Below are positions 13,678 to 61,093 of a stretch of DNA of 64,000 bases, one piece after another (positions within the stretch are counted from its first letter, which is position 1; the number at the start of each line of letters is the position of its first letter). This stretch comes from an uncultured Patescibacteria group bacterium (GTDB lineage Bacteria; Patescibacteriota; Microgenomatia; UBA1400; PJMF01), in contig CAJQIG010000004.1 of NCBI GenBank assembly GCA_905478415.1, positions 11,523 to 75,522 on the forward strand, read 5' to 3'. Both the position numbers and the translations under genes were made by a program. The notes under the pieces were generated by a model. The model was not told the origin of the DNA, ran no database searches, and saw only the letters and a list, made by a program, of their open reading frames with translations.

Positions 13678-13720
13678 AGTGTTTCTGGTATCTTCTTACT
13701 TTCTATATTTTTCGTGAGCT

Positions 13721-13735
13721 GTGATTATATCATAG
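13721..13735 (-). promoter_or_regulatory. Perfect -10 element (TATAAT) upstream of rpsL; -35 weak
   Basis: Minus strand ...TTGCCCCAAGCCTATGATATAATCAC... about 45 nt upstream of the rpsL ATG. Confidence 0.35.
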
Positions 13736-13738
13736 GCT

Positions 13739-13777
13739 TGGGGCAAATAAAGTCCTGATTTGCCCCAACCTTTTTTA
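13739..13777. terminator. 11-bp hairpin between rpoC and rpsL; a perfect intrinsic terminator in plus-strand orientation (T6 tail), with an A-tract on the rpoC side
   Basis: TTGGGGCAAAT-aaagtcctg-ATTTGCCCCAA followed by CCTTTTTTAT on plus; no U-run on the minus side, so it may only partly terminate rpoC read-through or block antisense transcription. Confidence 0.45.
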
Positions 13778-13786
13778 TGTGCTTTT

Positions 13787-30137: not shown

Positions 30138-32009
30138 TTAGTTTGTAGGTTTTGATCGCAGGTACACCCGACGAACACCAGCTGATGCTGACTGCTCTTT
30201 AAAGAGCTCAATTGGGCTAATTTCTCCTGTAGAATTTACGTGAGGGCCACCACAAAATTCTTTGGAAATCCAGTCAGTTTCAGGATCATTTCCAATTGTG
30301 TAAACTGTCACTTCATCCGGATATTTTTCAATAAAGAAAGCAATAGCACCTGACTTTAAAGCCTCTTCTTTGTCCATAATCTTGACTGTCATTGGCAAAT
30401 CAGCAGCAATCCACTCATTTACTTGTGCTTCTACGGCAGTTTTCTCTTCGGTTGTCAGTGCTGCAGGATGAGAAAAGTCAAATCGCAACCGTTTTTCGGT
30501 AATGTTCGAACCTTTTTGTTGGACATGTTCTCCAAGTATTTTTCGTAACGCCGCATGTAATAAATGAGTAGCCGTGTGATACTGAGTTGTTTTCTCACTA
30601 TGATCTGCCAATCCACCTTTAAATTTAGCGCTCGAGGCTTGGCGTGATGCATCAGCATGAGCTGTTTTGGCTGCTTGGAACGATGCAACCGAAATAGTTA
30701 TTCCTTTCTCAGCCGCGATTTCTTGCGTCAGTTCGAACGGAAAACCGTAGGTTTCATATAAGTAAAAAGCAGTCTCACCGGTAATTTCTGTAACTTTTTC
30801 TATCTCTCGCAAACCGGTTGCCAGCGCTTTCTGGAACTTTTGTTCTTCTGCTTTGAAAGCTGCTTGAATACGAACAAGGTTCTCAGTTACTTGCGGATAC
30901 GCTTCTTCATACATCTGGGCAACTGCTGTTGCCACATCAGCAATAAATGGCTTTTCGATACCAATCATCTTGCCGAATCGAATTGCCCGTCGTAGTAATC
31001 GGCGTGAGAAGTAGCCCTGTTCTTTATTCGAAGGATAGACCCCATCTGTAGCTAACATAGTTGCAGCTTTAATGTGATCAGCAATAACTCTAAACGAACG
31101 ATTTGTCTCACTGTCAGAACCGTATTTTTTACCTGAAAGCGTCTCAATTTGAGAAATAATTGGTGTAAATAAACCTGTTTCAAACACATCTTGTGTGTTA
31201 CCCAAAACCGCCAAAATACGTTCGAATCCTCCACCAAAATCGACATTTTTTTGAGCAAGTTCAGTAAAAGTTCCATCCGGTTGCTTTTGGTACTGCATAA
31301 AAACTGAGTTGCCAATTTCAAGGAACCGGCCACAGTCACAATTTACGTGACAAGGTACATCTTTGAACTCATTGTTTTCGTGGAGTTTTTTTTCAGCTCC
31401 AAAATCATAAAAGACTTCACTGTCTGGACCACCTGGTTCACCTGCGGGCATAGTACTTGGAGCGCCTGCACGTGACCACCAGTTACCGTCACCATAGTAG
31501 AAAATTCGCCCACCTTGTAGACCATTTTTGGCAGCGTCATCAATCACTTCTGCTGAAGTACCAACTGATGCAAATAATTTTTTCCAAATTTCAGGAGTTT
31601 CTGTATCTTTTGGAACTCCAATGGCTTCATTACCTTCATACGCAGTCACGTAAAGCTTTTGAGGATCAATGCCGAGTTCCTCTGTCAGGAAAGCAAAGAA
31701 CCAACCCAGTTGTTCTTCTTTAAAATAATCACCCAGAGACCAATTGCCCAACATTTCAAAAAATGTTGTGTGTCGGTTGTCTCCAACTTCTTCGATATCT
31801 TGTGAGCGAAAACATTTTTGGCTATCGGCAATACGAGTACCCTTTGGATGTTCTTCTCCCAGTAGATACTGGATCATTGGCTGCATACCAGAACCAGTAA
31901 ACAAAGTGGTTGGATCATTCTCTGGAACAAGCGCAGCTGACGGCACAATGGCGTGGCCTTGTTTTTCAAAAAAATCTAAATACTTTTGACGTAGTTGATT
32001 TGGTGTCAT
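30138..32009 (-). CDS. alaS: Alanine--tRNA ligase, short form lacking the C-terminal C-Ala/DHHA1 domain
   Basis: 623 aa from MTPNQLRQKYLDFF (RBS AAAGGA 6 nt upstream); class II catalytic core, editing-domain HxxxH (HTATHLLHAAL) and CGGPHV motifs; ends ~250 aa before canonical bacterial AlaRS would. Confidence 0.9.
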   Translation of the reverse strand: MTPNQLRQKYLDFFEKQGHAIVPSAALVPENDPTTLFTGSGMQPMIQYLLGEEHPKGTRIADSQKCFRSQDIEEVGDNRHTTFFEMLGNWSLGDYFKEEQLGWFFAFLTEELGIDPQKLYVTAYEGNEAIGVPKDTETPEIWKKLFASVGTSAEVIDDAAKNGLQGGRIFYYGDGNWWSRAGAPSTMPAGEPGGPDSEVFYDFGAEKKLHENNEFKDVPCHVNCDCGRFLEIGNSVFMQYQKQPDGTFTELAQKNVDFGGGFERILAVLGNTQDVFETGLFTPIISQIETLSGKKYGSDSETNRSFRVIADHIKAATMLATDGVYPSNKEQGYFSRRLLRRAIRFGKMIGIEKPFIADVATAVAQMYEEAYPQVTENLVRIQAAFKAEEQKFQKALATGLREIEKVTEITGETAFYLYETYGFPFELTQEIAAEKGITISVASFQAAKTAHADASRQASSAKFKGGLADHSEKTTQYHTATHLLHAALRKILGEHVQQKGSNITEKRLRFDFSHPAALTTEEKTAVEAQVNEWIAADLPMTVKIMDKEEALKSGAIAFFIEKYPDEVTVYTIGNDPETDWISKEFCGGPHVNSTGEISPIELFKEQSASAGVRRVYLRSKPTN

Positions 32010-32039
32010 ACTTTTTCCTTTGGGGAGCGGTTTTTTCAT

Positions 32040-32325
32040 AAAAAAACCCGCCTCTTCCCACAACAATTGTTACGGACAAGGACGAGCAAACTCGCGGTAC
32101 CACCTTGCTTTTTTTCTACAGTTACCTCTAGAAAACTCAGCAACTACCTTTCGGTAGTTTCCCCTTTTTACGGTGGGCATCCGGATCTTTTTACTCATCT
32201 TTAGATGATTCAAAGACCAGCTCGCAGGTGGCTCAAGGAAGACGTAGTACTCGGTTCTCAGCATTCCGAATTCTCTGTATCTACAGAATCATTCCTTTAT
32301 TCCTGTTCATCGCTGTTATTCGACT
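32040..32325 (-). promoter_or_regulatory. T-box riboswitch leader of alaS (candidate Ala GCU specifier)
   Basis: Minus strand contains AAGCAAGGTGGTACCGCGAG (T-box core GGTGGTACCGCG) ~70 nt before the alaS RBS, followed by GAGGCGGGTTTTTTT (terminator 3' arm plus U-tract); candidate specifier loop cGGAAUGCUGAGAAccg ~170 nt upstream; AGUA-type motifs present. Confidence 0.7.
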
Positions 32326-39298: not shown

Positions 39299-40072
39299 CT
39301 ACTTTTGGGTTTTTTGCGTATCGGGTGCATAACTCACCGCTCCATCCGGCAACCGTCGCACCCAATCTCCAGAGCGCTGCTCTTCAACAATGTGCGCAAT
39401 ACTTCCTGCCACTCGAGCCACACCAAATAAGGCATTCCCCGCTAATGGGTCAATCTTCATGGCCATAAGTAATGCTGCTAAAGCCCCATCTATATTAATC
39501 ACCAGTGGTTTCAACAACTCTGCTTCTAATACACTAGCAATCTGCTTAGCGATATTTATGTAGTGAATATCGAGTCCTGCATTTCGAGCTAAAATAAATA
39601 ATTGTTCGGTTCGAGGATCCTTTTTTGTATAGACTGGGTGTCCAAACCCTGGAATACGTTTTTTGTCTGCACGGTAGGTTTTAACCAACCATGTTGCCCC
39701 AGCTTCTGTATCTTCTGAGTACTCATCGACTGCCTTCAACACTTCCATTGCTCCCGTAATGGCTCCACCATGATAAGGACCAAGTGCTAACAAAGATGAG
39801 GCCATACACGTTAACACATCATTTCCAGAAGAGGCTACTACTCGAGGTACAAAACCACTAGCCGGATCAATACCATGGTCAATGGCTCCAACTAGAAGTG
39901 CATTGAGCACTTTTTCTTCGGCTGCTGTTGGCTTTTTGCCGGTTACAGACAAAAAGAGAGTAGAAACAAAGTTTGCTTCGCCAATGAGGGTGGTGAGCGG
40001 AATACCGCGTAATTCGAGGTCGTGCTGACCGTGGCCGCTAACACTGGTTTTGAAATCTAATTTTTGTGACAT
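39299..40072 (-). CDS. Citrate-synthase-family short protein, citryl-CoA lyase (Ccl)-like
   Basis: 257 aa; citrate synthase signature GFGHPVYTKKDPR; lacks the N-terminal half of full-length citrate synthase. Confidence 0.65.
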   Translation of the reverse strand: MSQKLDFKTSVSGHGQHDLELRGIPLTTLIGEANFVSTLFLSVTGKKPTAAEEKVLNALLVGAIDHGIDPASGFVPRVVASSGNDVLTCMASSLLALGPYHGGAITGAMEVLKAVDEYSEDTEAGATWLVKTYRADKKRIPGFGHPVYTKKDPRTEQLFILARNAGLDIHYINIAKQIASVLEAELLKPLVINIDGALAALLMAMKIDPLAGNALFGVARVAGSIAHIVEEQRSGDWVRRLPDGAVSYAPDTQKTQK

Positions 40073-40076
40073 ATAC

Positions 40077-40985
40077 CTATAGTTGTACTACTTTTTTAAG
40101 CTGTTTGACAATCTCTTCTGGATTCTGAGCAAGATGAACTCCTACCGCTGACAATGCATCAATCTTACTTTTTCGAGTTCCAAATTGAGCATCAACAATT
40201 GCGCCTGCATGTCCAAAAGCTATTCCTTTTGGCAATGTCTCGGCAAAAATGCCTGATATGTAAGCAATAACTGGTTTCGTAAAGTGTCGTGATTTAAGAG
40301 CTGTTGCCAAATCTTCTTCGGCACTGCCCCCAATTTCTCCAATAATTACTAAAGCTTTTGTCTGAACGTCTGCTTCTAATTCTGGAAGGACATCAGCAAA
40401 AGTAGTTCCAATGACTCTGTCTCCTCCAATTCCAGCTACGATTGTTTGTGGAATTTGAGCAGCTGTCAGTAAGGACGCTACGGTATTTGCCATCCCACCA
40501 CTTTTTGAAATGAGGGCCACACCTGGGCTATTAGCTTTAGGAAATAAGAAGTTCTCAAACACACCACCACCTAATGACCCAAGCGCGGTCCCCGTCGTTA
40601 CAACCCCAACTGAGCTTGGTCCCAACATTCGAGCATTTTTTTGTTTAACTAACTCTAACAAATCGACACTATCTCGTGTAGGAACTTGTTCGGCAATAAT
40701 ATGGATAAGGGAAATACCAGCTTTTACAGCTTCGGTAGCAGCTACTTTCACAAACTTGGGTGGCACATAGATACTACTGACAGTAGTATCCGGGTGAGCT
40801 TGCAGTGCCTCTGCAACTGAGTCATAGACAGGAACTCCTTCCACAACTTCACCTCCATGTCCTGGAGAGACTCCAGCAAGAACTTGAGCTCCTCCGAGCT
40901 GCATCCATGTAGCAGCACGTCGCCCCTCTTTCCCCGTAATTCCTTGAATCAAGTACTTAGTCTGGATAGAAAGTGAAAACAGCAT
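40077..40985 (-). CDS. Succinyl-CoA synthetase alpha-like subunit (CcsB / ACL small-subunit N-domain-like)
   Basis: 302 aa; CoA-binding GITGKEG, phosphohistidine loop AFGHAGAIVD. Confidence 0.8.
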   Translation of the reverse strand: MLFSLSIQTKYLIQGITGKEGRRAATWMQLGGAQVLAGVSPGHGGEVVEGVPVYDSVAEALQAHPDTTVSSIYVPPKFVKVAATEAVKAGISLIHIIAEQVPTRDSVDLLELVKQKNARMLGPSSVGVVTTGTALGSLGGGVFENFLFPKANSPGVALISKSGGMANTVASLLTAAQIPQTIVAGIGGDRVIGTTFADVLPELEADVQTKALVIIGEIGGSAEEDLATALKSRHFTKPVIAYISGIFAETLPKGIAFGHAGAIVDAQFGTRKSKIDALSAVGVHLAQNPEEIVKQLKKVVQL

Positions 40986-40986
40986 G

Positions 40987-42198
40987 TTATACCCTCTCCT
41001 TTTGAGAGTGCTGTCGCTTTACCAATGCCGTTTTGAGGGCAGGGATAGTATCAAGAATCGGCACTGTTGGACCAAGCAACGTCACTGCAAATCGAGTAGG
41101 GTCGAGCCTGGTTCTCACCATCTCAAAAGCTTCTTCCCACCGTGGTCCTCCACGACGAATAATCACTGGGAACTGCTGTTCCCAATTAGAAGCAAGTAAT
41201 CCATCAACAACACCCGAGAGCGTCTCAAAAATATCCGTAAAACTAGCATTACTGCCCACTACATAGAGGGCTTCAAGTGTTTGGATTGAAAGGACAAGCT
41301 CTGTGAGTTCCCGAACTTTGTCTCTGCTCGGGTTACCCGAATACTCAGTATAGTTTGCTGGCTGTAGTCCGTGTTCCAATAATCCATCCATTGCTAAAGC
41401 CGATGCCCCGCCACCTGAAGCCAATACACCAATGGTCCCACCAGGAAACTCAAAAAAACTTTCTCCTGCTACGCCCCGTTCATCCTGTCTACTTATAGCT
41501 AGTGCTGCTTGCTCTAAGGGGGTGCGTCTCTTTTCACCAGCAGCCCGTACTAAGCGAGATGCATTCCATTCTGGATGCCTAAAGCGGGCAGCATCTTCTA
41601 ACTCAATTTTGGCATCAAGACAAACATACCCAGAAGAAGTAACTCCTACGGGATTAATTTCAAGCAAGAGCGCATCATTTTCAATGAATGCTTGCCATAT
41701 TTTTTTAACTAATGGTAAAAATTTTGGATTCGCCTCGAATACTGTCGGCCCAGTCACTACTGAAAGCGGTATCTCTTGCAGAGTCGAGCCTCGCTCGTCC
41801 ATGCCCGCACCACCTTCTGATGAATACCTACAAATGAGCGAGCGCAAACTGGTGTCATAGCCAAGGCTTATGTACACTTGACTCTCAAACTCACACTTCT
41901 CTTCAATTAAAAGTTCATCTATTGGGTTCCCGTAGGCGTCTGACTTTGCGAAAAGTTGGGCTGCCTTTTCACTCAACTCTTCTGCAGAATCTGCAAACAA
42001 TATCAAACCAGAGAGACCTCGATTGCCATGTAAAACCTGGGCTTTAAGTACTACTGGGTACGAAAAGGGGACTGCCATGCTCGTAGAAAGATCCTCTTTT
42101 GTGAGTAGCACTCCGGCAGGAGTCAATAACGTGTAAGTTTGAAGTATTTTTTTGGCCTCAAATTCGGTCAATAACATAGTCACTATAGTAACATACAA
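40987..42198 (-). CDS. Succinyl-CoA synthetase beta-like ATP-grasp subunit (CcsA / AclA-like); probable real start ATG at 42177
   Basis: 403 aa (ORF begins at TTG); MLLTEFEAKKILQTY and VVLKAQVLHGNRG resemble the SucC N-terminus and ATP-grasp. Confidence 0.75.
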   Translation of the reverse strand: MYVTIVTMLLTEFEAKKILQTYTLLTPAGVLLTKEDLSTSMAVPFSYPVVLKAQVLHGNRGLSGLILFADSAEELSEKAAQLFAKSDAYGNPIDELLIEEKCEFESQVYISLGYDTSLRSLICRYSSEGGAGMDERGSTLQEIPLSVVTGPTVFEANPKFLPLVKKIWQAFIENDALLLEINPVGVTSSGYVCLDAKIELEDAARFRHPEWNASRLVRAAGEKRRTPLEQAALAISRQDERGVAGESFFEFPGGTIGVLASGGGASALAMDGLLEHGLQPANYTEYSGNPSRDKVRELTELVLSIQTLEALYVVGSNASFTDIFETLSGVVDGLLASNWEQQFPVIIRRGGPRWEEAFEMVRTRLDPTRFAVTLLGPTVPILDTIPALKTALVKRQHSQKERV

Positions 42199-42249
42199 CT
42201 CTCTATTCTTTGAGATGAAGGAAAAACTACTTAGTTACAGCTATAGTGG

Positions 42250-42267
42250 CAAAGTATCGATACTTTG
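42250..42267. repeat. Perfect 18-bp palindrome CAAAGTATCGATACTTTG upstream of the ccs/ccl-like operon
   Basis: Read directly; further CAAAGTA(T/C) copies at 42284 and 42307. Confidence 0.6.
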
Positions 42268-42412
42268 GGATATATCCAAAGTATGAACGAACTTGTGAAC
42301 TTTTTGCAAAGTACACGGGCTTTCGTAAAAGCGGAACTTTTTTCATATTTCAACAAGTGTACAAAAATACTTAATTTCATGCAATGCATATGAACTACAC
42401 ACATTCCTTAAG

Positions 42413-42766
42413 TTACTCAAGCTGGGTTTGCAAACTACCTAAGCGTTCTACAAAAATTGAGAAGTACTCAGAATCAAAAATCATGTTAATAATAGGAATG
42501 TAGTTTATCTGGCGCAGTGTCTCAACTAGGATGGTAATCACCACGTAAGCAATAATGGTACCACCCAACACTACTCCAAAACCTTGCACAATCCCATTAA
42601 GAAGTCTGAAGCGCAAAGACATGGCTCTATCAAGTCGTTGATTCACTCGAATAAGACTTTTTTCTAGACGTTGCAATGTTTCAAGCTCAAGTTTTTCAAC
42701 TTTTTCGAGTGACTCTTTTTTTGGCGAAGTACTCTCTTTAGTGATTGGCATACTCTTAGTATACAC
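42413..42766 (-). CDS. Hypothetical small protein with C-terminal TM helix
   Basis: 117 aa; coiled N-terminus and hydrophobic GFGVVLGGTIIAYVVITILV. Confidence 0.4.
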   Translation of the reverse strand: MYTKSMPITKESTSPKKESLEKVEKLELETLQRLEKSLIRVNQRLDRAMSLRFRLLNGIVQGFGVVLGGTIIAYVVITILVETLRQINYIPIINMIFDSEYFSIFVERLGSLQTQLE

Positions 42767-42799: not shown

Positions 42800-44788
42800 C
42801 TACCTCTGAGCAACTAAACTAAGCCATGGAGAAACTGATTTTAGATCTCCAAGTTCCTGTAATCCAACATAGAGCATTAATGCATCATGCAACTCTTTTG
42901 ACTGGGCGGTGTCAGCTGCTCCAAATGCCATATACTCACTCGACTCAGACCCAGGCATAAGAATAACTGAAGCTCCAGGTTTTCCACCAGGGCTCATATT
43001 ACCTTTACCCATTGCGTCAAAGTCACTCCACCAGCCTGGAGCTATGAAAATTGGCGCATCTGTTTCTTGGTTTGAAGTGTCAAACTGTGATGAGAACCCT
43101 GAGCCGCGAGAGTGCCCTCCTGCCATAATGCCTGGTTTATAAAGCTCTTGTTGGTACTGTCTAAAGTGACCAAATGATGGCTTCTCACTTGACATATTAT
43201 TACCTAATTTATCGAGTAATAATGCTGTATAGGTTGGTCTATGAAGCATATTTCCAGCTGCACCAAGTGAAATGGCTAAAACCGATTTGTTATGAACAGT
43301 TGGCACCGAAAGACGTTTAGAAAGTTCATGCACCGGATCGAGACCATAACTTGATAATCGATCACCCGAACCAATATCACGTTGCCAAGCAGCCTGCTTT
43401 AGACTTGAGTCTTTCATAAGTAGGAGTAGCTGTTCTTCATAGGGAAGGTGAGCAGCTACAACGTTTTCTAAAACTGAATCTCTGCTACGAGAGCGAGCCG
43501 TTTGTTTATCAACCATGTTTCTCAATATCGCTAAGAAGACGTGAGGATTATCTTTAAGGGTATCTGCTAAGTACCGTTTATATCGTTCGACACCTGCATC
43601 CTTTGATCCAAAACGAACATTCTGTCCAAACTCAACTCTAATTGGCAGTTTTGATTCGATGTCATACCAAACAACATCGCGCAGTGATCCCTCATCAGGT
43701 AAAAATGTTTCTTCTTCTTCAGATATTGTGGGGGATAGTTCTCGTGCAAAACGAACGGTTGGTTTATCCTCAACCTCACTCTGGATCCGTTCTCGAATTT
43801 CATCCGTCATTTGCTGAGATTCTAAGCTGTTGAGCACTTCCATAGCTGTATGGATTACGGCCCCATGCTTATCAGTCATGGTTGGATAGCGAAGTACTCG
43901 ACCATCACTAGCAGAAAAAATTTCTATACTTTGACCACCCTTATCAGCCAGTGGCAATCCTAATTTTTTACCAAATGGATCTTGTGGCAAGTCACCATTA
44001 ACACTTTTAAATGTTCCATTCTGCACTAACACTAATGAAGGATCATCTGATATCACACCCACATGTTTTCTCACCTTTGCTAAGACCGAATCAGGTTGAT
44101 TCTCATTAACAATTCCAGCTCTATGAATATGGGCACTAAATACCGTACCTTCTCTTGTCCCAGCGTCTTGTGCTTGTTGAACCTTTCGCCCAGCATGATT
44201 TGGATCATACTGACTCTTACCTCTGGCACTATGGAATACCTGTACTGGAACAACTTTCCCTGACGCAAACTCAACGTTAATATGCCCACCTTGAGTTACC
44301 AGATTAACATCTAAATCTCGAATAATTTCTTTCCAAGGATCTGCAGTCGATGCATCTTGCACCCAACCATTATGTCCCCAGTAGTCAGTTACCATCCCCA
44401 TCACCCTACCTGCATCTACGAGTGGCTTGAGAACCATGGTTCTGAATAACTCCATTTGTTGCGTGGCTGTACCAACAGTAGAGACAGCGTTTGTCGAAAG
44501 GTACCCTTTTTTTCGCCCCTCAATTTCATCTCCAGTCATGACTACATACACGTCAGGTGTTGACAAAATATATGCTACCAGCTCTTTTACGAGTGTTTGA
44601 TCGGTATTCAGTGATCCAAGGTGTAAATCACCGAGCGAAAATACTTGAATTGGTCTATCATGTTCAATAGCAAAAGAGACACTTGTTGGTGTCTCCGTCT
44701 CCATTATAGCCTCCTGCATAAGGCTGATGGCTGCACTAAGTTTTTCTGCATGCACTTGCTCTCTTCTGTCCCGCTCTTGATGATTCAT
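42800..44788 (-). CDS. Calcineurin-like metallophosphoesterase with ~400-aa C-terminal region of unknown function
   Basis: 662 aa; N-terminal MPP motifs SLGDLHLG (GDxHG) and MTGDEIEG (GDxxD/E); remainder unrecognised. Confidence 0.65.
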   Translation of the reverse strand: MNHQERDRREQVHAEKLSAAISLMQEAIMETETPTSVSFAIEHDRPIQVFSLGDLHLGSLNTDQTLVKELVAYILSTPDVYVVMTGDEIEGRKKGYLSTNAVSTVGTATQQMELFRTMVLKPLVDAGRVMGMVTDYWGHNGWVQDASTADPWKEIIRDLDVNLVTQGGHINVEFASGKVVPVQVFHSARGKSQYDPNHAGRKVQQAQDAGTREGTVFSAHIHRAGIVNENQPDSVLAKVRKHVGVISDDPSLVLVQNGTFKSVNGDLPQDPFGKKLGLPLADKGGQSIEIFSASDGRVLRYPTMTDKHGAVIHTAMEVLNSLESQQMTDEIRERIQSEVEDKPTVRFARELSPTISEEEETFLPDEGSLRDVVWYDIESKLPIRVEFGQNVRFGSKDAGVERYKRYLADTLKDNPHVFLAILRNMVDKQTARSRSRDSVLENVVAAHLPYEEQLLLLMKDSSLKQAAWQRDIGSGDRLSSYGLDPVHELSKRLSVPTVHNKSVLAISLGAAGNMLHRPTYTALLLDKLGNNMSSEKPSFGHFRQYQQELYKPGIMAGGHSRGSGFSSQFDTSNQETDAPIFIAPGWWSDFDAMGKGNMSPGGKPGASVILMPGSESSEYMAFGAADTAQSKELHDALMLYVGLQELGDLKSVSPWLSLVAQR

Positions 44789-44917: not shown

Positions 44918-46174
44918 TTAGAACCAAAGGTCCAAGAAAAGGAAGGCTACAATGCCGGCAACAACGGACATACTCATTCCCCATGCCAGCAACCAATTAA
45001 ATAGTCTTTTTTGCTGAGCTTTATCTTCGACTGCTGCTAGTGAAAGCGCCCCCAGTGTCGAAAGTGGACTCACATCCACCATATGAGAACCAACGGCTAC
45101 GGCAATGACCATAGGTATAATCTCGCTAATTCCCATCTTAGTAGCAAGACCCGGTACCAACGGTACAAATGCCGGTAATACTACTCCAGAAGAAGAACTG
45201 TATGCCGAAACGGCTCCACTCACAAAAGCCAACACTGCATTAATAAAATCTGGACTGGTTACAGTAGCGATAAAGGTTGTAGCCAAGTCTAGACCACCAG
45301 TTTTTTCCATTAAATTGATCAAGACTGCAATCCCCGTCACCATTTGAATAGTTGACCAAGGTACTGTCTCAATCACTTCTTCTTCTTCAGCAAGACCTAA
45401 GAAGAACATGCCCACCGCTGTTGATACAGCCATAATCACCAGCGGAACTTCCGCAATAATCACACCAGAAATCAAAAGCATAATCGCAATAAGTGAGATC
45501 TTTTGTTTCTTTTTCAACACTGGTTTCTTGGCTTTAATAGTTACGACTTTAGGCTTGTATCTTCTCTTTCTACTTCTAAATAAGAACAGACCATAAGCAA
45601 GTAAAGCTGAAAGTGACTGCAGTACAGCCGAAGCTCCAAAAACAATCCAGATTAATTGTGTATCAAGTTGAATCTGGTGTAGTAATCCCAAGGCCACGAC
45701 ACCTGTTGGAGAAAAAGGAGAAAAAGCACCAGCGTTCGCTCCAGTACATAACATAATCGCAATAATAAGCGGAGAAATCCCATGTTTTTTAGCTAAGTTC
45801 ATCGTCATTGGTGCAAGGAGTGCTACTGCCGCAATATTACCTGGACCGAGAGCCGAAAGTAAAAAGGACAACGCAAATACTAATAGGGGTAGTAACAATG
45901 CTTTTCCTCGAATCAAATTAATAGCATAGTGAGTCACAACATCGAGCGTGCCATTTTTTTGAGCAATGCCAAAAACCATACTCATACTCACCAGTAGAAT
46001 AAATAACTGAGCAGGAAATCCTGCTAAAATTGTGTTTGTTGAAAAATCAGCAAGATACACTCCAATTCCAAGGGCGGCAGCTAATGCTAACAAGCCGGGA
46101 TTAAGCTTTGGTAAAAAGCAACTTAGAATAACTATTACAAGTAACGCAGAAAGCGAAACAATAGCGGTGAACAT
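44918..46174 (-). CDS. Ion-transporter-superfamily permease (ArsB/NhaD/DASS/CitMHS-like), two-repeat topology
   Basis: 418 aa; ~12 TM helices in two halves split by a basic loop RSRKRRYKPK...; hairpin-like GANAGAFSPFSPTG and GSHMVDVSPLSTLG motifs. Confidence 0.5.
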   Translation of the reverse strand: MFTAIVSLSALLVIVILSCFLPKLNPGLLALAAALGIGVYLADFSTNTILAGFPAQLFILLVSMSMVFGIAQKNGTLDVVTHYAINLIRGKALLLPLLVFALSFLLSALGPGNIAAVALLAPMTMNLAKKHGISPLIIAIMLCTGANAGAFSPFSPTGVVALGLLHQIQLDTQLIWIVFGASAVLQSLSALLAYGLFLFRSRKRRYKPKVVTIKAKKPVLKKKQKISLIAIMLLISGVIIAEVPLVIMAVSTAVGMFFLGLAEEEEVIETVPWSTIQMVTGIAVLINLMEKTGGLDLATTFIATVTSPDFINAVLAFVSGAVSAYSSSSGVVLPAFVPLVPGLATKMGISEIIPMVIAVAVGSHMVDVSPLSTLGALSLAAVEDKAQQKRLFNWLLAWGMSMSVVAGIVAFLFLDLWF

Positions 46175-51033: not shown

Positions 51034-51924
51034 TTACCTCATACCAGCAGTAAACTGAGAGACATCATACTGTTGAACTTCCTGAGTGAGCTCTGTTGGA
51101 ATATCTTTTCTAACCGCATCCCGAGACATAAAGGGCACTGAGTGAGGATCTTGAAAAATAATGCCCGTAGCAATCTTTTCATCGACATCTTCAGCGGCAG
51201 CGAGTGCTGCTGCTCGATCACTCGGATCATACCCTTCAGTCGCAACATTATAGACTCGTTGTTGATACCACTCGTGCGGTGTTGTCTTGTTATATGAAGG
51301 ACAATTTTGAAGTACCTCAACAAAACTAAAGCCCGGATGCTTCATAGCAGCTTGAAATATAGTATTCATTCCCCTGATGTCACCAGAAAAAACTCGTGCT
51401 GAAAAACTTACACCCAGTGATAACACAAAACGTTGTGCATGCACCGGGTCCGAAGTCACTCCATCTGGAGAAGAGTTCATCGGAATATCTTTTCTGGTCG
51501 TAGCCGAAGCCTGCCCCTTTGTTAAACCATAGTTTTCATTATTGTGACAAATAAAAGTTATATTAAAGTTAGCACGGACCGCGTGAGCTAGGTGATTAAT
51601 ACCTTCACCGAAGGTTGCCCCATCTCCAGCCTCCATCACTACCGTAAGATTTTTATTTGCACAAGCTATGCCAGCAGCAAGCGGAATCACCCGACCATGA
51701 AGTCCATGAAATCGGTATCCACCAATCTTATCAGAACCATTACCATTACACCCAATATCGTAACAAAGCATAGCCTGGTGTGGAGTAACGCCTAAGGCCA
51801 CTAATGCTTGTTTGAGAGCAACTTGAATACCGAAGTTTCCACAGCCAGGACACCAAGTCAGAGCATTTGGTGAAGCATAGTCTGCCAAAGTTGTCGTTTT
51901 TGTAGAGCAAGTAGTACATGACAT
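51034..51924 (-). CDS. 2-oxoacid:ferredoxin oxidoreductase beta subunit (TPP-binding)
   Basis: 296 aa; CPGCG motif, GDG TPP-binding, typical KorB/PorB length. Confidence 0.88.
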   Translation of the reverse strand: MSCTTCSTKTTTLADYASPNALTWCPGCGNFGIQVALKQALVALGVTPHQAMLCYDIGCNGNGSDKIGGYRFHGLHGRVIPLAAGIACANKNLTVVMEAGDGATFGEGINHLAHAVRANFNITFICHNNENYGLTKGQASATTRKDIPMNSSPDGVTSDPVHAQRFVLSLGVSFSARVFSGDIRGMNTIFQAAMKHPGFSFVEVLQNCPSYNKTTPHEWYQQRVYNVATEGYDPSDRAAALAAAEDVDEKIATGIIFQDPHSVPFMSRDAVRKDIPTELTQEVQQYDVSQFTAGMR

Positions 51925-51926
51925 AT

Positions 51927-53678
51927 CTAATTCTCTTCCCGTTGTATTTCTGAAAGTATCTCGTTAACGAAGAATGGTCTGCCCTCGTTTTTAAGTACGA
52001 TATGATCTGGCGTAAAACCAGATTCCATACGGACAAGTTTGGCCAGCTGACCAGTTCCATTATTCTCCACAAAAACAACTTTTTGAGCTGTCTGAGCGAG
52101 CGCCTCCAAACGTTCAGTCTTGAGTGGAAACAGGTATTCGTAATGGAGATACGAGCATTTTTTAGAACCACCAGTTTGTTGATACAGTTGTATGGCATCA
52201 AGAACGGTAAGCTTCACACTTCCCCAACCAACATATAAAACATCACAGGCTTCTTCACCAAAAAGTTCTGGTTCTGGTAGCGCTGCAGCGATAGTATCGT
52301 GCTTTCGCATTCGTCGCTCAAAAATTTCTTTAGATGGTCCAGAATCCTCAGTCAAAGAACCATCACCCAAATGTTCATCACTATTAGCATCAAAAGTAGG
52401 AGCACACTGTCCTGGCAACCAACGTGGGGTCACACCAGATTCAGTATTCTTATACCGATCCATGTTTGAAAGTGAACCAAGTTCGCTTTCAGGTACTAGT
52501 CCACGAGAAATCTCTATTGAAGCCGGAAGATCTTTAAGATGAAAGTGGGACTCGGCAATCTGCTTTTCAGTTAACAAAATAACTGGAATTTGATATTCTT
52601 CCGAGAGATTAAGTGCTACCTGAGTTAAGGTAAAACAAGAACTTGGATCACTTGCAGCCAAAACCACCTTTGGATACTCACCATGACCAGAGAAAACTGC
52701 AAGTAATAAATCAGCAGCATTTGTCCAAGTAGGCAAACCGGTTGCTGGACCTGGACGTTGAGCAACTACACAAACAAATGGTGTTTCAGTCATACCAGCT
52801 AGAGAAACCGTTTCAGTCATCAAGTCAAAGCCACCGCCAGACGTTCCACACATGGCTCGAGTGCCTGCAAACGAAGAACCAACGGTCATCTGGGCAACCG
52901 AAATTTCATCTTCAATTTGCTTAACCAGCATTCCAGTTTGGTGAGAAATACTCGCCAAGTAACTCAAAATAGAACTTGAAGGTGTCATTGGATAGGCATA
53001 GTAAGCCCTAACACCACCCGCTACAGCACCGAGGGCTATGGCTTGATTTCCTCCGATAATAATGTCATCAACTAAATCTGAGTTTAAAGTAAAAGGTAAC
53101 TCAACTGGGATAAGACCAGCATCCTCAAATGCTTTACCAGCTTCGATCATGGCAATATTTGGTTCGATAACATCAGGTTTTTTCTCAAACTGTTTTCGGA
53201 CTACTTGTAGTAGTGGCTCTGAAGGAAGACCTAAAAGCTTCCACAGTACTCCCAATAAAAATGTATTGGCCATCAAAGGGTGTCCACCCGCTTCTTTTAC
53301 CAATTGTTGTGCAGGGACAAAAATCAAGGAAATATTTTTTTCGGTCAAAATTGCTTGTTGTTGCTCACTCACTTGCAATCCAATAACAGAGTGAATAACA
53401 GTACCGTTAGGTGCTACAGAGGGCAAATAAGCGGTGAAAGCACTGACACTCAGAACCAAAAGAATGTCACAGTGTTCTGCTGCCGAGTTGAGCAGCTGAT
53501 CAGAAAAATCAACTTGAAATGATGCGAATCCTCCCTTTATAAGAGATGGATATTCTCGATAGCCAAAACTGTAGAGACCAGACTCTTTGAGGGACTTGGA
53601 AATAGTATCCCCAACGGAATTAATACCCTGTCCAGATGCACCGGACACTTTAACGACAAATCGATTGTGAATATGCAT
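51927..53678 (-). CDS. 2-oxoacid:ferredoxin oxidoreductase alpha subunit with fused N-terminal gamma domain
   Basis: 583 aa; N-terminal gamma-like GASGQG region then the alpha pyrimidine-binding domain; two-subunit OFOR architecture. Confidence 0.85.
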   Translation of the reverse strand: MHIHNRFVVKVSGASGQGINSVGDTISKSLKESGLYSFGYREYPSLIKGGFASFQVDFSDQLLNSAAEHCDILLVLSVSAFTAYLPSVAPNGTVIHSVIGLQVSEQQQAILTEKNISLIFVPAQQLVKEAGGHPLMANTFLLGVLWKLLGLPSEPLLQVVRKQFEKKPDVIEPNIAMIEAGKAFEDAGLIPVELPFTLNSDLVDDIIIGGNQAIALGAVAGGVRAYYAYPMTPSSSILSYLASISHQTGMLVKQIEDEISVAQMTVGSSFAGTRAMCGTSGGGFDLMTETVSLAGMTETPFVCVVAQRPGPATGLPTWTNAADLLLAVFSGHGEYPKVVLAASDPSSCFTLTQVALNLSEEYQIPVILLTEKQIAESHFHLKDLPASIEISRGLVPESELGSLSNMDRYKNTESGVTPRWLPGQCAPTFDANSDEHLGDGSLTEDSGPSKEIFERRMRKHDTIAAALPEPELFGEEACDVLYVGWGSVKLTVLDAIQLYQQTGGSKKCSYLHYEYLFPLKTERLEALAQTAQKVVFVENNGTGQLAKLVRMESGFTPDHIVLKNEGRPFFVNEILSEIQREEN

Positions 53679-53714
53679 GTCTACACTGTATCAAAAAAAT
53701 CTGATATATGAAAA

Positions 53715-55925
53715 CTAAAATTCTGAGAGAATAACCTTACCATCAACAGCATACGCTTCATCTTTGGTAACAATCACTGGATTAATCTCTATTTCAGCAA
53801 AGAAAGGTAGCTTCGTAACCAAATCGGTGAGTTGAGCCATCAGGTGATACAAACGTTCAAGAGCTAATGATTGCCCACCTCGATACCCCGTTAACAGCGC
53901 ATACGCTTTTGACTCCTCGACCAACTTTTTAATATCTCTAGCAGTTACTGGTAACACATGGATGTTATGATCAGAAATGAGCTCAACCAAAGTGCCGCCA
54001 GCTCCAAACATCAGCACATTCCCAAACTGTGGAGTTCGTTTAATACCGACAATAACTTCGACCCCATTCTCAATTTGAGACTGCATCTGCAGTTGAGTTG
54101 TTTTCCTAATACCCACTGGCAAATCAGTCATCCGTCCAATCAGTTGTTGTGAAGCAGCCTCAAGTTGTTTCTTACCCCTAATACCAGTGATTACACCACT
54201 GACTTCTGTCTTGTGAAGTAACTCAGGAGCACTGAGTTTTAAAACCACAGGGTACCCATGAATCCCAGCGAATCGTTTTGCTTGCTCCAGGTTAGCAACT
54301 ACCGTACTTGGAGGAGTCGCAATATCCCAATCGTCAAACAGCTCCTGAATTTTACTGCTTTCTAGATACCGTTCTCCTGCAACTAATCTACTTCGAATGT
54401 ATTCAAGGTGATGATGCTGAGCTGAGGGCACAACGGGGGCTACTTCAAGCGGTGTCTGTTTCTTGGCTGCCTCTTTCTGCCACTCTTTCCACCACCACAT
54501 TTTTCCAAGTGCACCGATTGCTCTTTCTGGATAGCTGAAAAAAGGAATTTTGTATTTGCTTAAAACTTTCTCACCACTACTAATTAATTGGCCTCCCATA
54601 AAGGAGCAAAAAATTGGTTTTCGATACTTTTGAGAAAGTCTGCCAATTACTAACGCTGTCTTTTCAATCTCGGTCATAACTTGGGGAGTTAAAATAACCA
54701 TAATTGCATCAACTTTATCTTCCTCTAAAAGCAACCTCAAAGCTTTTTCGTATCGATCAGAAAGTGCATCACCCAACACATCAACTGGATTCACGATACT
54801 TGCAGCCCGCGGTAAATGGCGAGTAAGTAGCTCTTTCGTTTCTTTTGAAAGCGGTGCCATTTCAAGTCCTGCTTCTATAACTGCATCACTACTCACCACC
54901 GCTGGTCCACCTGCATTTGATAAAATAGCAATCCGCTTGCCTTCAGGAGCATCACTCCAAGAGAAAGCTTTGGCTAAATCAAACATGTCTTCGATAGTGT
55001 GACAACGAATAACTCCTGCTTGTGTAAATGCTTGAGAGAGCACAACATCATCACCAGCAATCGCTCCGGTATGAGACTGCATGGCTTTTTGAGCAGCACT
55101 CGATTTTCCTGGTTTTAAAATGAATAGTGGATTATTCTTGGCCACTTGTGTAGCAAGTTCAATAAACCTGGATCCATCAGTAAGTGACTCCAAATACATT
55201 CCAATGGGATGATATGAAGAACTATCTAGCCTCTGTGCATCCCGAACCTTTTCTGCTGGATTTTCGAGCCAATACTCCAAAAAATCATTTTCTGTGAGTA
55301 CCGCTTTATTACCAAGGGTAATAAAATCTAGAAACCCAAGCTCATGATGCTCCGCCCAATCAAAAATACTTGTGGCGATCGCTCCAGACTGAGAAATAAA
55401 GTGCATTCGTCCAGCCCGTGAAATACCCTGTCCAAAAGTTGCGTTCAACTTTTTAGGTGTGTACACATGTCCTAAGCAATTTGGTCCTAAAATACTCAGA
55501 CCAAATTCTTTGGCTACAGCCACTAGCTCTGCCTCAAGAAGAGCACCTTCTCGACCAGTTTCTTTAAATCCAGCTGAAATAATAACTACGGCTTTCGTAC
55601 CTTTCTGTCCAATTTCTCTGACGACATCAAGCACAAACTGGGCTGGAATAGCGATAATTGCTAAATCTGGAATTTGAGGAATCTGAGCATAGTGTGAATA
55701 CACTGGCAACCCAGCAATGGTAGTTTCATGTCCATTAACTGGATAGACAACACCCTTATACCCACCTTCAATAATGTTTTTTAGTAAAATAGCTCCAAGC
55801 TTGTGAGAATTGCTGGATGCCCCAACGACTGCAATGGAACGTGGTGCTAGTAGTTTGTTGATTTCTGTATTCATGGGCAGAATTAAAATGAGCTCCTCTA
55901 TACCTTTCAGTATAAAGGAGCCCAA
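53715..55925 (-). CDS. Acetyl-CoA synthetase (ADP-forming), fused alpha/beta (ACD); start probably the Met at 55874
   Basis: 736 aa; N-terminal CoA-binding (SIAVVGAS), succinyl-CoA-synthetase-like ligase-CoA region, C-terminal ATP-grasp. Confidence 0.85.
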   Translation of the reverse strand: MGSFILKGIEELILILPMNTEINKLLAPRSIAVVGASSNSHKLGAILLKNIIEGGYKGVVYPVNGHETTIAGLPVYSHYAQIPQIPDLAIIAIPAQFVLDVVREIGQKGTKAVVIISAGFKETGREGALLEAELVAVAKEFGLSILGPNCLGHVYTPKKLNATFGQGISRAGRMHFISQSGAIATSIFDWAEHHELGFLDFITLGNKAVLTENDFLEYWLENPAEKVRDAQRLDSSSYHPIGMYLESLTDGSRFIELATQVAKNNPLFILKPGKSSAAQKAMQSHTGAIAGDDVVLSQAFTQAGVIRCHTIEDMFDLAKAFSWSDAPEGKRIAILSNAGGPAVVSSDAVIEAGLEMAPLSKETKELLTRHLPRAASIVNPVDVLGDALSDRYEKALRLLLEEDKVDAIMVILTPQVMTEIEKTALVIGRLSQKYRKPIFCSFMGGQLISSGEKVLSKYKIPFFSYPERAIGALGKMWWWKEWQKEAAKKQTPLEVAPVVPSAQHHHLEYIRSRLVAGERYLESSKIQELFDDWDIATPPSTVVANLEQAKRFAGIHGYPVVLKLSAPELLHKTEVSGVITGIRGKKQLEAASQQLIGRMTDLPVGIRKTTQLQMQSQIENGVEVIVGIKRTPQFGNVLMFGAGGTLVELISDHNIHVLPVTARDIKKLVEESKAYALLTGYRGGQSLALERLYHLMAQLTDLVTKLPFFAEIEINPVIVTKDEAYAVDGKVILSEF

Positions 55926-55966
55926 GAGTAACTGTAAAGCTCAATAGCACTCAAAATTACTCATTT

Positions 55967-56398
55967 TTATTGTGCAGTTTGTACTAGTCCGATCATCATT
56001 GTCTCTAAAAATCCTTGGGCTTTCTCCGAGTGAGGACCAGAACCATTTGGTCGATCAAAAAATGCTTCAGTTACTTCAGTTCCACAATTTTGGGCAATGA
56101 CATCACCACCTGGGTGTTTTTGAGCAGTGACATACTCAGAAACATCGTACACGGAGTCATTAACAACCAACCAACAATCTTCAGCAGTTTTATGAGTGGA
56201 AACTTCTTCTAAAGAATAGCGAGCCATCATAGCTTCAGGCTGAGTTGCAGACTCTTCAGCCCCCATAGCCTCAACCTCAGTTGTTTGGGACTCTTCCATC
56301 ATGGCTTCATCTTGAGAAGTCTCTTGTTTTTCTCCTAAAGTGCATCCTGCTAAAACTATGCTGCATACACCAACTACAGCCAACTGTTTGATATTCAT
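55967..56398 (-). CDS. Cytochrome b5-like haem-binding domain lipoprotein
   Basis: ~143 aa from MNIKQL; lipobox LAGC; b5 motifs HKTAEDCWLVVNDSVYDVSEYVTAQKHPGG. Confidence 0.65.
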   Translation of the reverse strand: MNIKQLAVVGVCSIVLAGCTLGEKQETSQDEAMMEESQTTEVEAMGAEESATQPEAMMARYSLEEVSTHKTAEDCWLVVNDSVYDVSEYVTAQKHPGGDVIAQNCGTEVTEAFFDRPNGSGPHSEKAQGFLETMMIGLVQTAQ

Positions 56399-56543
56399 AG
56401 GAACCTTTCTCCAAGAACAAATCTTGTATTTATACAATCAGGGTGCTGAAAGTGTAGCAGACTTTACATTATTGAACAATAAAACATGCCTAATAGGCTC
56501 CAGCTTGACAGCTATGCCCCTTTCCATTCAGAATGAAGATACT

Positions 56544-57461
56544 ATGAAAAACTCAAACAAGATTGCCATTATTGGTTGTGGAAATGTCGGTATGACAGCC
56601 GCCTACTCGATTTTACATAAAGGTAATGTTGACGAGCTGGTCCTCTTTGGCCGACATAAAGAAGCACTCATCGGAGAAAAACTTGACCTCGAACATGGCC
56701 TCAGTTTTTTATCTACAGCCAAGATTATTGCCTCGGACGACTATGCTGATTTGGCAGGTAGTGACGTTATTGTGTATACGGCTGGTGCAGCGCAAAAACC
56801 TGGGGAGACAAGACTTGACCTGACCAACAAGAATGTAGCTATTATAGAAAGCATCATCCCGCAAGTTGTCAAACATGCACCAGATGCAGTCGTCCTGGTT
56901 GTCGCCAACCCCGTTGATATCCTCACCTATAAAGCCTACTTAGCTGCTGGTTTACCAAAAGGTCGTATCTTTGGATCTGGTACGACTCTTGATACTGCCC
57001 GTTTTAGATTTCATTTATCAGAATTTATGAATGTCCATCCACGCAGTATTCATGCCTATGTACTTGGTGAACATGGTGACCACTCATTTCCATCACTTTC
57101 AAGTGCAAATATTGGCGGACAAAACCTCAAAGACTTTCCAAACTTTACTGAAGAGAAAGCTTTAAAAGCCTATCAAAAAGCTCGAGCTGCTGCTTATAAA
57201 ATCATTGAATCTAAGGGAGCAACCTACTACGCTATTGGTGCTGATATTTCCAGCATTGTCTCAACTATCCTCAAGGATAAGCGATCTGTCTTGGCTGTCT
57301 CAATCCCACTGCACAACTACTATGGACAAAGCGGCATTGCTTTAAGTGTGCCATGTATTGTCGGTAGAAATGGAGTCGAACATGTACTTAAAGCCAATCT
57401 TTCGAAACATGAGCAAAAACTACTCGAAAGAGCTGCTACTGCACTCAAAAGCTTTCTCTAA
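56544..57461 (+). CDS. ldh: L-lactate dehydrogenase
   Basis: ~305 aa from MKNSNKIAIIGCGNVG (Rossmann GxGxxG); substrate-loop Gln (AGAAQKPGETRLDL); catalytic His in GEHGDHSFP. Confidence 0.88.
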   Translation: MKNSNKIAIIGCGNVGMTAAYSILHKGNVDELVLFGRHKEALIGEKLDLEHGLSFLSTAKIIASDDYADLAGSDVIVYTAGAAQKPGETRLDLTNKNVAIIESIIPQVVKHAPDAVVLVVANPVDILTYKAYLAAGLPKGRIFGSGTTLDTARFRFHLSEFMNVHPRSIHAYVLGEHGDHSFPSLSSANIGGQNLKDFPNFTEEKALKAYQKARAAAYKIIESKGATYYAIGADISSIVSTILKDKRSVLAVSIPLHNYYGQSGIALSVPCIVGRNGVEHVLKANLSKHEQKLLERAATALKSFL

Positions 57462-60851: not shown

Positions 60852-61091
60852 CTATTGAACCTTAATCACATCTACTGGGCAGGCATCCGCAGCAGCTTGG
60901 TTTTCTTCAGCATCCTCATACCCAACTTTTCGATGCTCAAGCTGTTTTCCCTTTTGGGAGCCTTTTAAATCTGATTTACCATCCTCTGGATTCATACTCC
61001 AGTACTTTGGACACAGTAGGGCACACATGCCACAACCAATACAGTTATCTCGATCGTGGGTGACTGTTACGTCTTTAAATGAATCAGCCAT
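60852..61091 (-). CDS. 4Fe-4S ferredoxin
   Basis: 79 aa; CIGCGMCALLCP cluster motif plus distal ACP. Confidence 0.85.
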   Translation of the reverse strand: MADSFKDVTVTHDRDNCIGCGMCALLCPKYWSMNPEDGKSDLKGSQKGKQLEHRKVGYEDAEENQAAADACPVDVIKVQ

Positions 61092-61093
61092 AC

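Follow-up and report, generated by a model that had tools for sequence, protein, structure and literature searches.

A predicted ATP-dependent citrate-cleavage operon of the CcsAB/Ccl type in a Patescibacteria group bacterium

We analyzed a 64-kb stretch of DNA (the window) from an uncultured Patescibacteria group bacterium, contig CAJQIG010000004.1, in which three adjacent minus-strand genes had been predicted to encode a citryl-CoA synthetase (CCS) and a citryl-CoA lyase (CCL), a two-enzyme counterpart of ATP-citrate lyase (ACL). A further 8 kb or so past the right end of the window was also scanned for genes. The nearest named relatives of the first gene product (60% identity) belong to Candidatus Pacebacteria and the Patescibacteria group, and genes for ribosomal proteins, EF-Tu/EF-G and rpoBC are found in the window as well; it is on these grounds taken to be chromosomal DNA of a Pacebacteria-like bacterium of the Candidate Phyla Radiation (CPR). 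The three open reading frames (ORFs) lie exactly where they had been predicted, tightly packed on the minus strand at 40987-42198, 40077-40985 and 39299-40072. With the start of the first gene revised, the locus reads as follows (lengths in amino acids, aa):

40987-42177, minus strand: large subunit, CcsA/AclB-like, with an ATP-grasp domain and an ACL-type citrate-binding domain; 396 aa from the ATG at 42177
40077-40985, minus strand: small subunit, like CcsB and the N-terminal part of AclA, with a CoA-binding Rossmann domain and a phosphohistidine loop; 302 aa
39299-40072, minus strand: citryl-CoA lyase, Ccl-like, a short protein of the citrate synthase family; 257 aa
42178-42412, minus strand: non-coding DNA upstream of the large-subunit gene, about 235 bp, the sole sizeable gap around the trio

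The mechanical ORF of the first gene (40987-42198) begins with a TTG and would give 403 aa. Public gene calls of the identical protein place the start at the ATG at 42177, which aligns with the N-terminus of SucC-type proteins. The gaps between the genes are 1 nt (first to second) and 4 nt (second to third), and the ribosome-binding site of the second gene, a Shine-Dalgarno AAGGAG, sits within the 3' end of the first. The three genes form one operon, for which the non-coding region at 42178-42412 is the probable promoter or leader. No specific promoter is claimed there: a scan for promoters and terminators around the operon returned sites no more numerous than in shuffled sequence.

The first gene product had been described as an ATP-grasp subunit similar to the beta subunit of succinyl-CoA synthetase (SucC). 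Its Pfam matches agree with respect to the ATP-grasp fold (ATP-grasp_2, 1.3e-21) and add a citrate-binding domain, Citrate_bind (PF16114, 1.9e-19; 70.3 bits against a cutoff of 26.8), in the place that Ligase_CoA occupies in SucC; Ligase_CoA itself was not matched. E-values of this size lie well outside what chance would give. The control, Escherichia coli SucC, gave the opposite pattern, with 114 bits for Ligase_CoA and no Citrate_bind match, and two CcsA controls scored 56.8 bits (Thermocrinis, Aquificae) and 52 bits (Nitrospira) for Citrate_bind, which is below the 70 bits of the window protein. The Pfam architecture is common to 120 of the 120 best matches of the large subunit. On the NCBIfam SucC equivalog model the protein reached 137 bits, far under the cutoff of 375. 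Its top matches in the PDB are Chlorobium limicola AclB (6hxj_A, 5.3e-31) and Hydrogenobacter thermophilus CcsA (6hxq_B, 4.2e-28), with SucC behind them.

The second gene product was expected to resemble the alpha subunit, SucD, and it does contain the corresponding CoA_binding and Ligase_CoA domains, as well as the motifs QGITGKEG and AFGHAGAI, within which the quoted GITGKEG and GHAGAI fall. However, it scores 252 bits on the NCBIfam SucD equivalog, for which the cutoff is 336, and its signatures are not those of SucD: it reads SKSGGMA where SucD has SGT, GIGGDR where SucD has GGDP, and AFGHAGAI where SucD has RMGHAGAI. Tabulated across the families, the window protein shares with CCS and ACL an SGG motif, a GGD followed by a residue other than proline, and FGHAGA, as opposed to SGT, GGDP and RMGHAGA in SucD.

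The third gene product contains the quoted signature GFGHPVYTKKDPR and is, as had been proposed, a truncated homolog of citrate synthase: its Citrate_synt match in Pfam covers only the C-terminal two thirds of the profile (positions 152-355 of 357), the first 150 or so positions being absent. The top PDB match is H. thermophilus CCL (6hxp_A, 1.5e-40, 143 bits). The first match outside CCL follows at 2.6e-20, and (methyl)citrate synthases and the lyase modules of ACL reach only about 1e-20, with 73 bits for the ACL modules. Among NCBIfam models the protein ranked highest on those for citryl-CoA lyase; the citrate synthase models gave at most 110 bits against cutoffs above 330, and on four further CCL models, besides the one considered below, its matches were below the cutoffs. 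Both catalytic residues of the AclA lyase module, H491 and D543 (PMC13147460), have equivalents in the window lyase, His145 and Asp195. From the active site of citrate synthase and CCL it also retains His66, His101, Arg154 and Arg220, residues that are conserved across the clade. The protein is intact, complete in its catalytic residues, and belongs to a conserved clade.

The relationship of the three proteins to SucCD and citrate synthase was assessed with distance-based neighbor-joining (NJ) trees and 100 bootstraps. CcsA/CcsB, CCL and their relatives were taken from 80 genome loci, which do not include the H. thermophilus genome; SucC, SucD, GltA and PrpC of E. coli served as references, together with sequences transcribed from PDB alignments (C. 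limicola AclB/AclA, human ACLY, SucC/SucD of Thermus and Aeropyrum pernix, H. thermophilus CCL and Mycobacterium tuberculosis CitA). The large subunit was placed among CCS and ACL, with the SucC sequences of E. coli and Thermus outside that clade (100% bootstrap). The small subunit fell in a 57-member clade of CcsB, AclA and ACLY, apart from the four SucD sequences (89%), and the lyase joined CCL and the lyase modules of ACL to the exclusion of GltA, PrpC and CitA (97%). Since all three proteins are set apart from SucC, SucD and the citrate synthases at bootstraps of 100, 89 and 97, none of them branches within SucCD or full-length citrate synthase, the outcome that had been named beforehand as contrary to the original prediction. 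Profiles, structure matches, motifs and trees agree with its central claim that domain set and gene order match ACL or CcsAB plus Ccl and not a plain sucCD pair. As far as sequence comparison reaches, this confirms that the three proteins belong with CcsAB/Ccl and ATP-citrate lyase, outside SucCD and citrate synthase. The identity of the genes, their family placement and the conservation of their catalytic residues are established by these data. Within the large clade, the CCS of Aquificae and Leptospirillia form one group (100% bootstrap). The mutual order of CPR, DPANN, Chloroflexi, Acidobacteria and ACL rests on internal nodes below 50%, and neither a placement of the CPR clade as sister of ACL nor one as sister of Aquificae CCS was supported.

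An ordinary SucCD accompanied by a degenerate citrate synthase fragment, the remnant of a lost tricarboxylic acid (TCA) cycle, is what the public annotations of relatives would lead one to expect, as they often read 'succinyl-CoA synthetase beta subunit', and the top PDB matches of the small subunit are indeed SucD chains. This explanation is contradicted by the analysis and we consider it extremely improbable: the equivalog scores of both subunits are far under their cutoffs (137 vs 375; 252 vs 336), Citrate_bind takes the place of Ligase_CoA in the large subunit, the reverse of the SucC control, signature motifs and trees part all three proteins from SucCD and the citrate synthases, and the short lyase is intact, in an operon whose order is kept across CPR, DPANN and Chloroflexi.

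In the same trees, five trios from metagenome-assembled genomes (MAGs) labelled 'uncultured Gammaproteobacteria' or 'Candidatus Udaeobacter' (loci L076, L077, L082, L088 and L092) are nested in a CPR clade with high support; that of L092, for example, groups with Parcubacteria locus L079 at bootstraps of 98-100. Such a placement points to errors in binning or labelling, or to a recent transfer.

The citrate-binding residues of ACL, which had been singled out for a check, were compared using human ACLY numbering read off an alignment with the window proteins. The citryl-CoA-synthesis center of ACLY comprises G281-283, S308, E599, S663-G665 and H760 (PMC11365397), and R379A serves as a citrate-binding mutant of ACLY (PMC10593830). 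In the large subunit, the motifs SGGGAS, ANYTEYSGNP, ASFT and RRGGP correspond to G281-283, S308/G309, N346-T348 and R379, so that Gly255-257 are equivalent to G281-283, Ser280/Gly281 to S308/G309, Ser312-Phe313-Thr314 to N346-F347-T348, and Arg342 to R379. In the small subunit, Glu99 is the equivalent of E599, Ser162-Gly163-Gly164 of S663-G665, and His259 of H760. All synthesis-center and citrate-site residues are kept except N346, which is replaced by Ser312. The large subunit carries the ACL-type EYSG and (A/S)(N/S)FT motifs; Aquificae CCS have DIGG and ANNT instead.

The substitution at Asn346 bears on the possibility that this is a CCS/CCL paralog with a new specificity, acting on another hydroxy-, di- or tricarboxylate, such as malate, citramalate, 2-methylcitrate or isocitrate, whose acyl-CoA it would form and cleave. 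The window protein is alone among the sampled CPR-clade sequences in having Ser in the citrate-binding loop; in addition, the permease encoded nearby (see below) scores higher on MatC, a dicarboxylate carrier family, than on CitMHS, the lyase lies just under the NCBIfam citryl-CoA lyase cutoff, and the CPR clade is deeply split from the characterized Aquificae enzymes. However, the remaining citrate-site residues (GGG, EYSG, Phe-Thr and Arg-Arg) are identical to those of ACL, the other CPR-clade members keep Asn, the citrate-synthase-type residues for oxaloacetate and citryl-CoA are intact in the lyase, and Ser is likewise found at the Asn346-equivalent position in the CCS of Leptospirillia, which is taken as an enzyme of the reductive TCA (rTCA) cycle. 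We regard a substrate other than citrate as unlikely.

With citrate as the substrate, homology to ACLY and CCS predicts the following chemistry. The large subunit would bind ATP through its ATP-grasp domain, and this ATP would phosphorylate His259 of the small subunit. The phosphoryl group would move to citrate bound by the large subunit through its citrate-binding domain (Gly255-257, Ser280/Gly281, Ser312-Phe313-Thr314 and Arg342), giving citryl-phosphate, which CoA bound to the small subunit would attack to form citryl-CoA. The 257-aa lyase, with His145 and Asp195, would then split citryl-CoA into acetyl-CoA and oxaloacetate, at a total cost of one ATP per citrate. Overall, the reaction mildly favors cleavage, by about -8 kJ/mol (PMC13147460).

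The operon is not confined to this genome. A large subunit with 100% identity is present on 17 public contigs, one of them of 584 kb. In an exhaustive search the family amounted to 106 clusters at 50% identity for E <= 1e-30 and to 1469 for E <= 1e-10. When a single genome of each GTDB species was scanned with an ACL/CCS-specific peptide, [PIA]AN[YF][TA][ED][YI][SG]G[ND], at least 600 matches were obtained, at least 590 of which were confirmed as relatives. The order large subunit, small subunit, lyase on a single strand was found in seven of seven CPR genomes looked up directly, in differing surroundings, and in every listed locus of CPR, Nanohaloarchaea, Micrarchaeota, Nanoarchaeia and Anaerolineae that yielded the complete trio. 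In all CPR and DPANN loci examined, small subunit and lyase are unfused. Among the loci from the genome scan, those of Aquificaceae have no lyase within 5 kb, and their ccsB is often elsewhere. The description of such an operon as unexpected in a fermentative, small-genome organism was overstated, as CPR and DPANN genomes commonly carry the trio, which has already been noted in a preprint (see below).

Genes inserted into the trio were considered as a hint to function and rejected, the inserts being lineage-specific only: a HAD-like gene in Nanohaloarchaea, an isocitrate dehydrogenase (IDH)-like gene in Leptospirillia, GNATs at a single CPR locus and, at two others, small ORFs. The HAD-like gene, conserved and of about 210 aa, lies between the two synthetase subunit genes in eight loci (L066, L071, L074, L078, L080, L081, L087 and L089), all from Nanohaloarchaea or unclassified archaea. 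In three Leptospirillia/Nitrospira loci (L050, 7388-9640; L052, 5883-8138; L054, 5670-7982), where the order of the trio is otherwise the same, a gene for a monomeric-isocitrate-dehydrogenase-like protein of about 750 aa separates the small-subunit and lyase genes, which fits an rTCA role in that lineage, in contrast to the CPR loci. The CPR locus L008 has two GNAT acetyltransferase genes (12060-12638 and 13327-13917), one between the small-subunit and lyase genes and one after the lyase, a hint that acetyl-CoA may feed acetylation. In the Anaerolineae locus L065, a second, highly divergent pair of large- and small-subunit-like genes directly follows the trio (7942-10081). It lacks the signature motifs of both CCS/ACL and SucCD, reading IGGSIS, LRVPGLG and ILGHRGVV, and may be another acyl-CoA synthetase paralog. 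Residues 1-374 of a 1023-aa protein, P0203, match the whole large subunit; it may be a fused, ACL-like single chain.

The following genes of the window lie upstream of the operon and bear on the metabolism in which it may take part:

44918-46174, minus strand: anion permease of the CitMHS/MatC family, 418 aa (MatC_N 2e-37, CitMHS 1.5e-28), 2.7 kb upstream of the operon
51034-53678, minus strand: 2-oxoacid:ferredoxin oxidoreductase (beta subunit 51034-51924, alpha subunit 51927-53678)
53715-55925, minus strand: fused ADP-forming acetyl-CoA synthetase (CoA_binding_2, Succ_CoA_lig, Ligase_CoA_2, ATP-grasp_5)
55967-56437: cytochrome-b5-like haem-binding protein
56547-57461 (longer bounds 56340-57461), plus strand: L-lactate dehydrogenase (TIGR01771, 351 bits against a cutoff of 304)
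60852-61103: small ferredoxin-like ORF

The oxidoreductase scored 538 bits on NCBIfam OAFO_sf, above the cutoff of 483, and matches POR, POR_N, TPP_enzyme_C and PFO_beta_C in Pfam. The acetyl-CoA synthetase scored 495 bits on the NCBIfam model AcCoA-syn-alpha, under its cutoff of 567. The specificity position of the lactate dehydrogenase (LDH) reads TAGAAQKPGETR, that is, Gln and not Arg. This gene was considered as a malate dehydrogenase (MDH) that could serve as an oxaloacetate sink, being of the Ldh family and passing an MDH subfamily cutoff, but the Gln and the L-LDH equivalog match rule that assignment out. The region 51034-57461 has the appearance of a fermentation-style cluster, composed of the oxidoreductase, the acetyl-CoA synthetase, the cytochrome-b5-like protein and the divergently oriented L-LDH; the cytochrome-b5 domain is an unusual element for a presumed fermenter. 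The permease is a candidate citrate or dicarboxylate importer, and its association with the operon is tentative.

Conserved linkage of the operon to the permease, the oxidoreductase, the acetyl-CoA synthetase, a Band_7 gene, a DUF5665 gene and a 662-aa ORF was examined and discarded, as it is restricted to the syntenic loci L001-L006. With linkage limited to close syntenic relatives, the neighborhood of permease, oxidoreductase and acetyl-CoA synthetase is not independent evidence for the function of the operon. The original prediction had invoked a two-subunit oxidoreductase and a ferredoxin in the window: both are present (51034-53678 and 60852-61103), and their metabolic tie to the operon is plausible context only, the linkage not being conserved.

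Directly upstream of the operon is a gene for a small membrane protein of the DUF5665 family (42413-42766, minus strand), whose position is kept in L001-L006 and which was not found at distant trio loci. Between it and the permease gene, the 662-aa ORF (42800-44788, minus strand) gave no Pfam or NCBIfam match; its N-terminus is metallophosphatase-like ('GDLHLG ... GDEIEG'). The same slot in relatives is occupied by unannotated ORFs of 1094 aa (L003/L004) and 390 aa (L005), with no phmmer similarity. A P-type ATPase gene, like the genes listed above, lies in the neighborhood of the operon (3-15 kb). Elsewhere in the window, a T-box leader (32075-32319, minus strand; RF00230, 99.9 bits where the gathering score is 93) precedes a gene for alanine-tRNA ligase (30138-32066).

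A look for MDH, fumarase and an aconitase/IDH set elsewhere in the genome had been suggested. None of these enzymes, and no fumarate reductase, true SucCD or 2-oxoglutarate synthase, was found among the ORFs scanned in the 64-kb window and the 8 kb to its right, which are part of a genome of at least 584 kb. These results bear on the proposal that the operon supplies the citrate-cleaving step of a complete rTCA cycle in a CPR bacterium that fixes CO2. CCS/CCL counts as a marker for an rTCA cycle of the Aquificae type, and a 2-oxoacid:ferredoxin oxidoreductase and a ferredoxin are at hand. However, the oxidoreductase adjoins the acetate-forming acetyl-CoA synthetase and LDH, a fermentative arrangement, nothing comparable to the IDH gene embedded in the Leptospirillia trio occurs in the CPR loci, and to our knowledge CPR genomes are without TCA cycles. 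With no other TCA-cycle gene in the window, an rTCA role is unlikely in the highest degree.

A heterotrophic use of citrate is the most economical reading, because no TCA cycle is visible and the acetate-forming acetyl-CoA synthetase, the oxidoreductase and LDH are present. Acetyl-CoA released by the lyase could be converted to acetate by the nearby ADP-forming acetyl-CoA synthetase, which would return one ATP and so repay the cleavage; it might alternatively serve acetylation and biosynthesis. Oxaloacetate could be decarboxylated to pyruvate, which would be reduced to lactate by LDH or oxidized by the 2-oxoacid:ferredoxin oxidoreductase, the route from pyruvate via acetyl-CoA to acetate yielding one further ATP; transamination to aspartate is an alternative fate.

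The same enzymes might also run in reverse, joining acetyl-CoA and oxaloacetate to citryl-CoA and releasing citrate with synthesis of ATP, the citrate being exported or used for glutamate. An ATP-conserving 'citrate synthase' role of this kind was reportedly proposed by Moller and colleagues in 1987 for the ATP-citrate lyase of Desulfobacter postgatei. Cleavage of citrate is mildly exergonic, at about -8 kJ/mol (PMC13147460, Table 1), close enough to equilibrium to be reversible in principle; substrate-level phosphorylation would be valuable to a fermenter, and a carboxylate permease is encoded nearby. However, the ADP-forming acetyl-CoA synthetase already yields ATP from acetyl-CoA while sparing oxaloacetate, the window showed no aconitase, no IDH and no enzyme that forms oxaloacetate, and export of a C6 acid would waste carbon. 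Operation in the direction of citrate synthesis is improbable in our judgment.

Taken together, the operon probably encodes a two-enzyme, ATP-dependent citrate-cleavage system of the CcsAB plus Ccl type, which would serve the heterotrophic use of scavenged citrate and not CO2 fixation. Several observations weigh against this reading. For the CPR clade, citrate specificity and direction are predicted from homology, as is the metabolic fate of the products. Ser312 (codon 41242-41244) replaces Asn346 of the citrate loop of ACLY, which the other 17 of 18 sampled CPR-clade sequences keep. The lyase scores 209.5 bits on the NCBIfam citryl-CoA lyase model NF004869, 2.5 bits under the cutoff of 212. 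The raw PDB score of the small subunit is nearer to SucD (219 bits) than to CcsB (172) or AclA (138), and the C-terminal extension of about 60 aa seen in H. thermophilus CcsB is missing. The trees are built from distances, with a small set of SucCD and ACL references (two SucC, four SucD). Linkage to the permease occurs only in the close syntenic relatives L001-L004 and is absent at distant trio loci; no oxaloacetate-consuming enzyme was found in the window, where the dehydrogenase is an LDH and not an MDH, and the part of the genome inspected amounts to 64 kb plus about 8 kb.

A broader proposal combines these elements: in CPR and DPANN organisms that lack a TCA cycle, the operon could be a dedicated module for citrate from the host or the community and the main route to acetyl-CoA and C4 compounds, and, given its mosaic composition, it might be nearer than any other living form to the ancestor of the fused ACL. 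We put this forward tentatively, as it is more doubtful than probable. If true, the module together with the ADP-forming acetyl-CoA synthetase would be ATP-neutral in host-dependent CPR and DPANN.

A 2022 bioRxiv preprint noted that sequences from Nanohaloarchaea, other DPANN and CPR are annotated as succinyl-CoA synthetase or citrate synthase, yet are monophyletic with CCS/CCL, and speculated that hosts and symbionts share the rTCA cycle (10.1101/2022.10.25.513756). A 2025 groundwater study reported aclAB to be enriched in Saccharimonadia MAGs, and a 2026 preprint on Nanobdellota counted 'succinyl-CoA synthetase alpha' in genomes for which it listed no citrate synthase, counts that may reflect the same annotation problem. 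Our literature search found passing mentions of CPR CCS/CCL and no biochemical or physiological studies. CCS/CCL and ACL genes are used as markers of autotrophy through the rTCA cycle. Here, an intact and conserved citrate-cleavage operon sits in an organism almost certainly without that cycle, so that both marker calls of 'rTCA potential' and annotations as a 'SucCD/citrate synthase remnant' are likely to mislead in CPR and DPANN. Citrate emerges as something that ultrasmall episymbionts might trade with their hosts, and the unfused, ACL-like enzyme offers a test case for the evolution of ATP-citrate lyase and citrate synthase. The value of the finding lies in a correct annotation and a testable physiological question.

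The enzyme family is already known and its CPR/DPANN clade has already been flagged in the literature; this is not a new kind of system. Like CcsAB and Ccl of H. thermophilus, the window system consists of three separate polypeptides of equal domain content. Its lyase is nearest to CCL, its large subunit has Citrate_bind, GGG and RR(x)GP, its small subunit SGG and FGHAGA, and all fall in one super-clade. In contrast, the trio is contiguous here, whereas the lyase of Aquificaceae is not within 5 kb and an IDH-like gene splits small subunit and lyase in Leptospirillia. The CPR large subunit has EYSG and (A/S)(N/S)FT where Aquificae have DIGG and ANNT, and that of the window is only about 30-38% identical to CcsA. 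The small subunit is of SucD length, without the C-terminal extension of some 60 residues in CcsB, and the host is presumably a non-autotrophic CPR bacterium and not an rTCA autotroph.

ACL, in the form of AclBA (EC 2.3.3.8; C. limicola, PDB 6HXJ) or ACLY, has the same module order: ATP-grasp/citrate-binding, CoA-binding/phosphohistidine, lyase. The large subunit is nearest to AclB (5.3e-31), with ANY(T/A)EYSG, (A/S)(N/S)FT and RRGGP in common, and H491 and D543 of AclA, the catalytic pair of its lyase module, are conserved. Unlike in ACL, small subunit and lyase are unfused, with a stop codon and 4 nt between them, and the lyase has YHGGA, the citrate synthase/CCL type, instead of RFGGA and lacks the 'NPDxR' insertion of ACL. 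SucCD and GltA/PrpC have homologous folds, with the ATP-grasp and CoA-binding domains, the phosphohistidine GHAGA loop and the catalytic Glu in common, and the lyase corresponds to the catalytic half of citrate synthase, at its C-terminus; the window proteins differ in having Citrate_bind and not Ligase_CoA, in the replacement of SGT, GGDP and RMGH, and in a lyase without the first 150 or so profile positions. With the ADP-forming acetyl-CoA synthetase, the net reaction would be citrate to acetate and oxaloacetate, ATP-neutral, as with the citrate lyase CitDEF, which would be a functional analog only: its proteins are unrelated, and the window system has no acyl-carrier subunit and would use free CoA and ATP. 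By its sequences the system appears as a mosaic, with an ACL-like large subunit and a CCL-like lyase, or 'an ACL whose lyase is unfused'. To some extent it is distinctive in its contiguous operon, its combination of ACL-type citrate-site motifs with an unfused CCL-type lyase, its small subunit of SucD length and its Ser at the Asn346-equivalent position.

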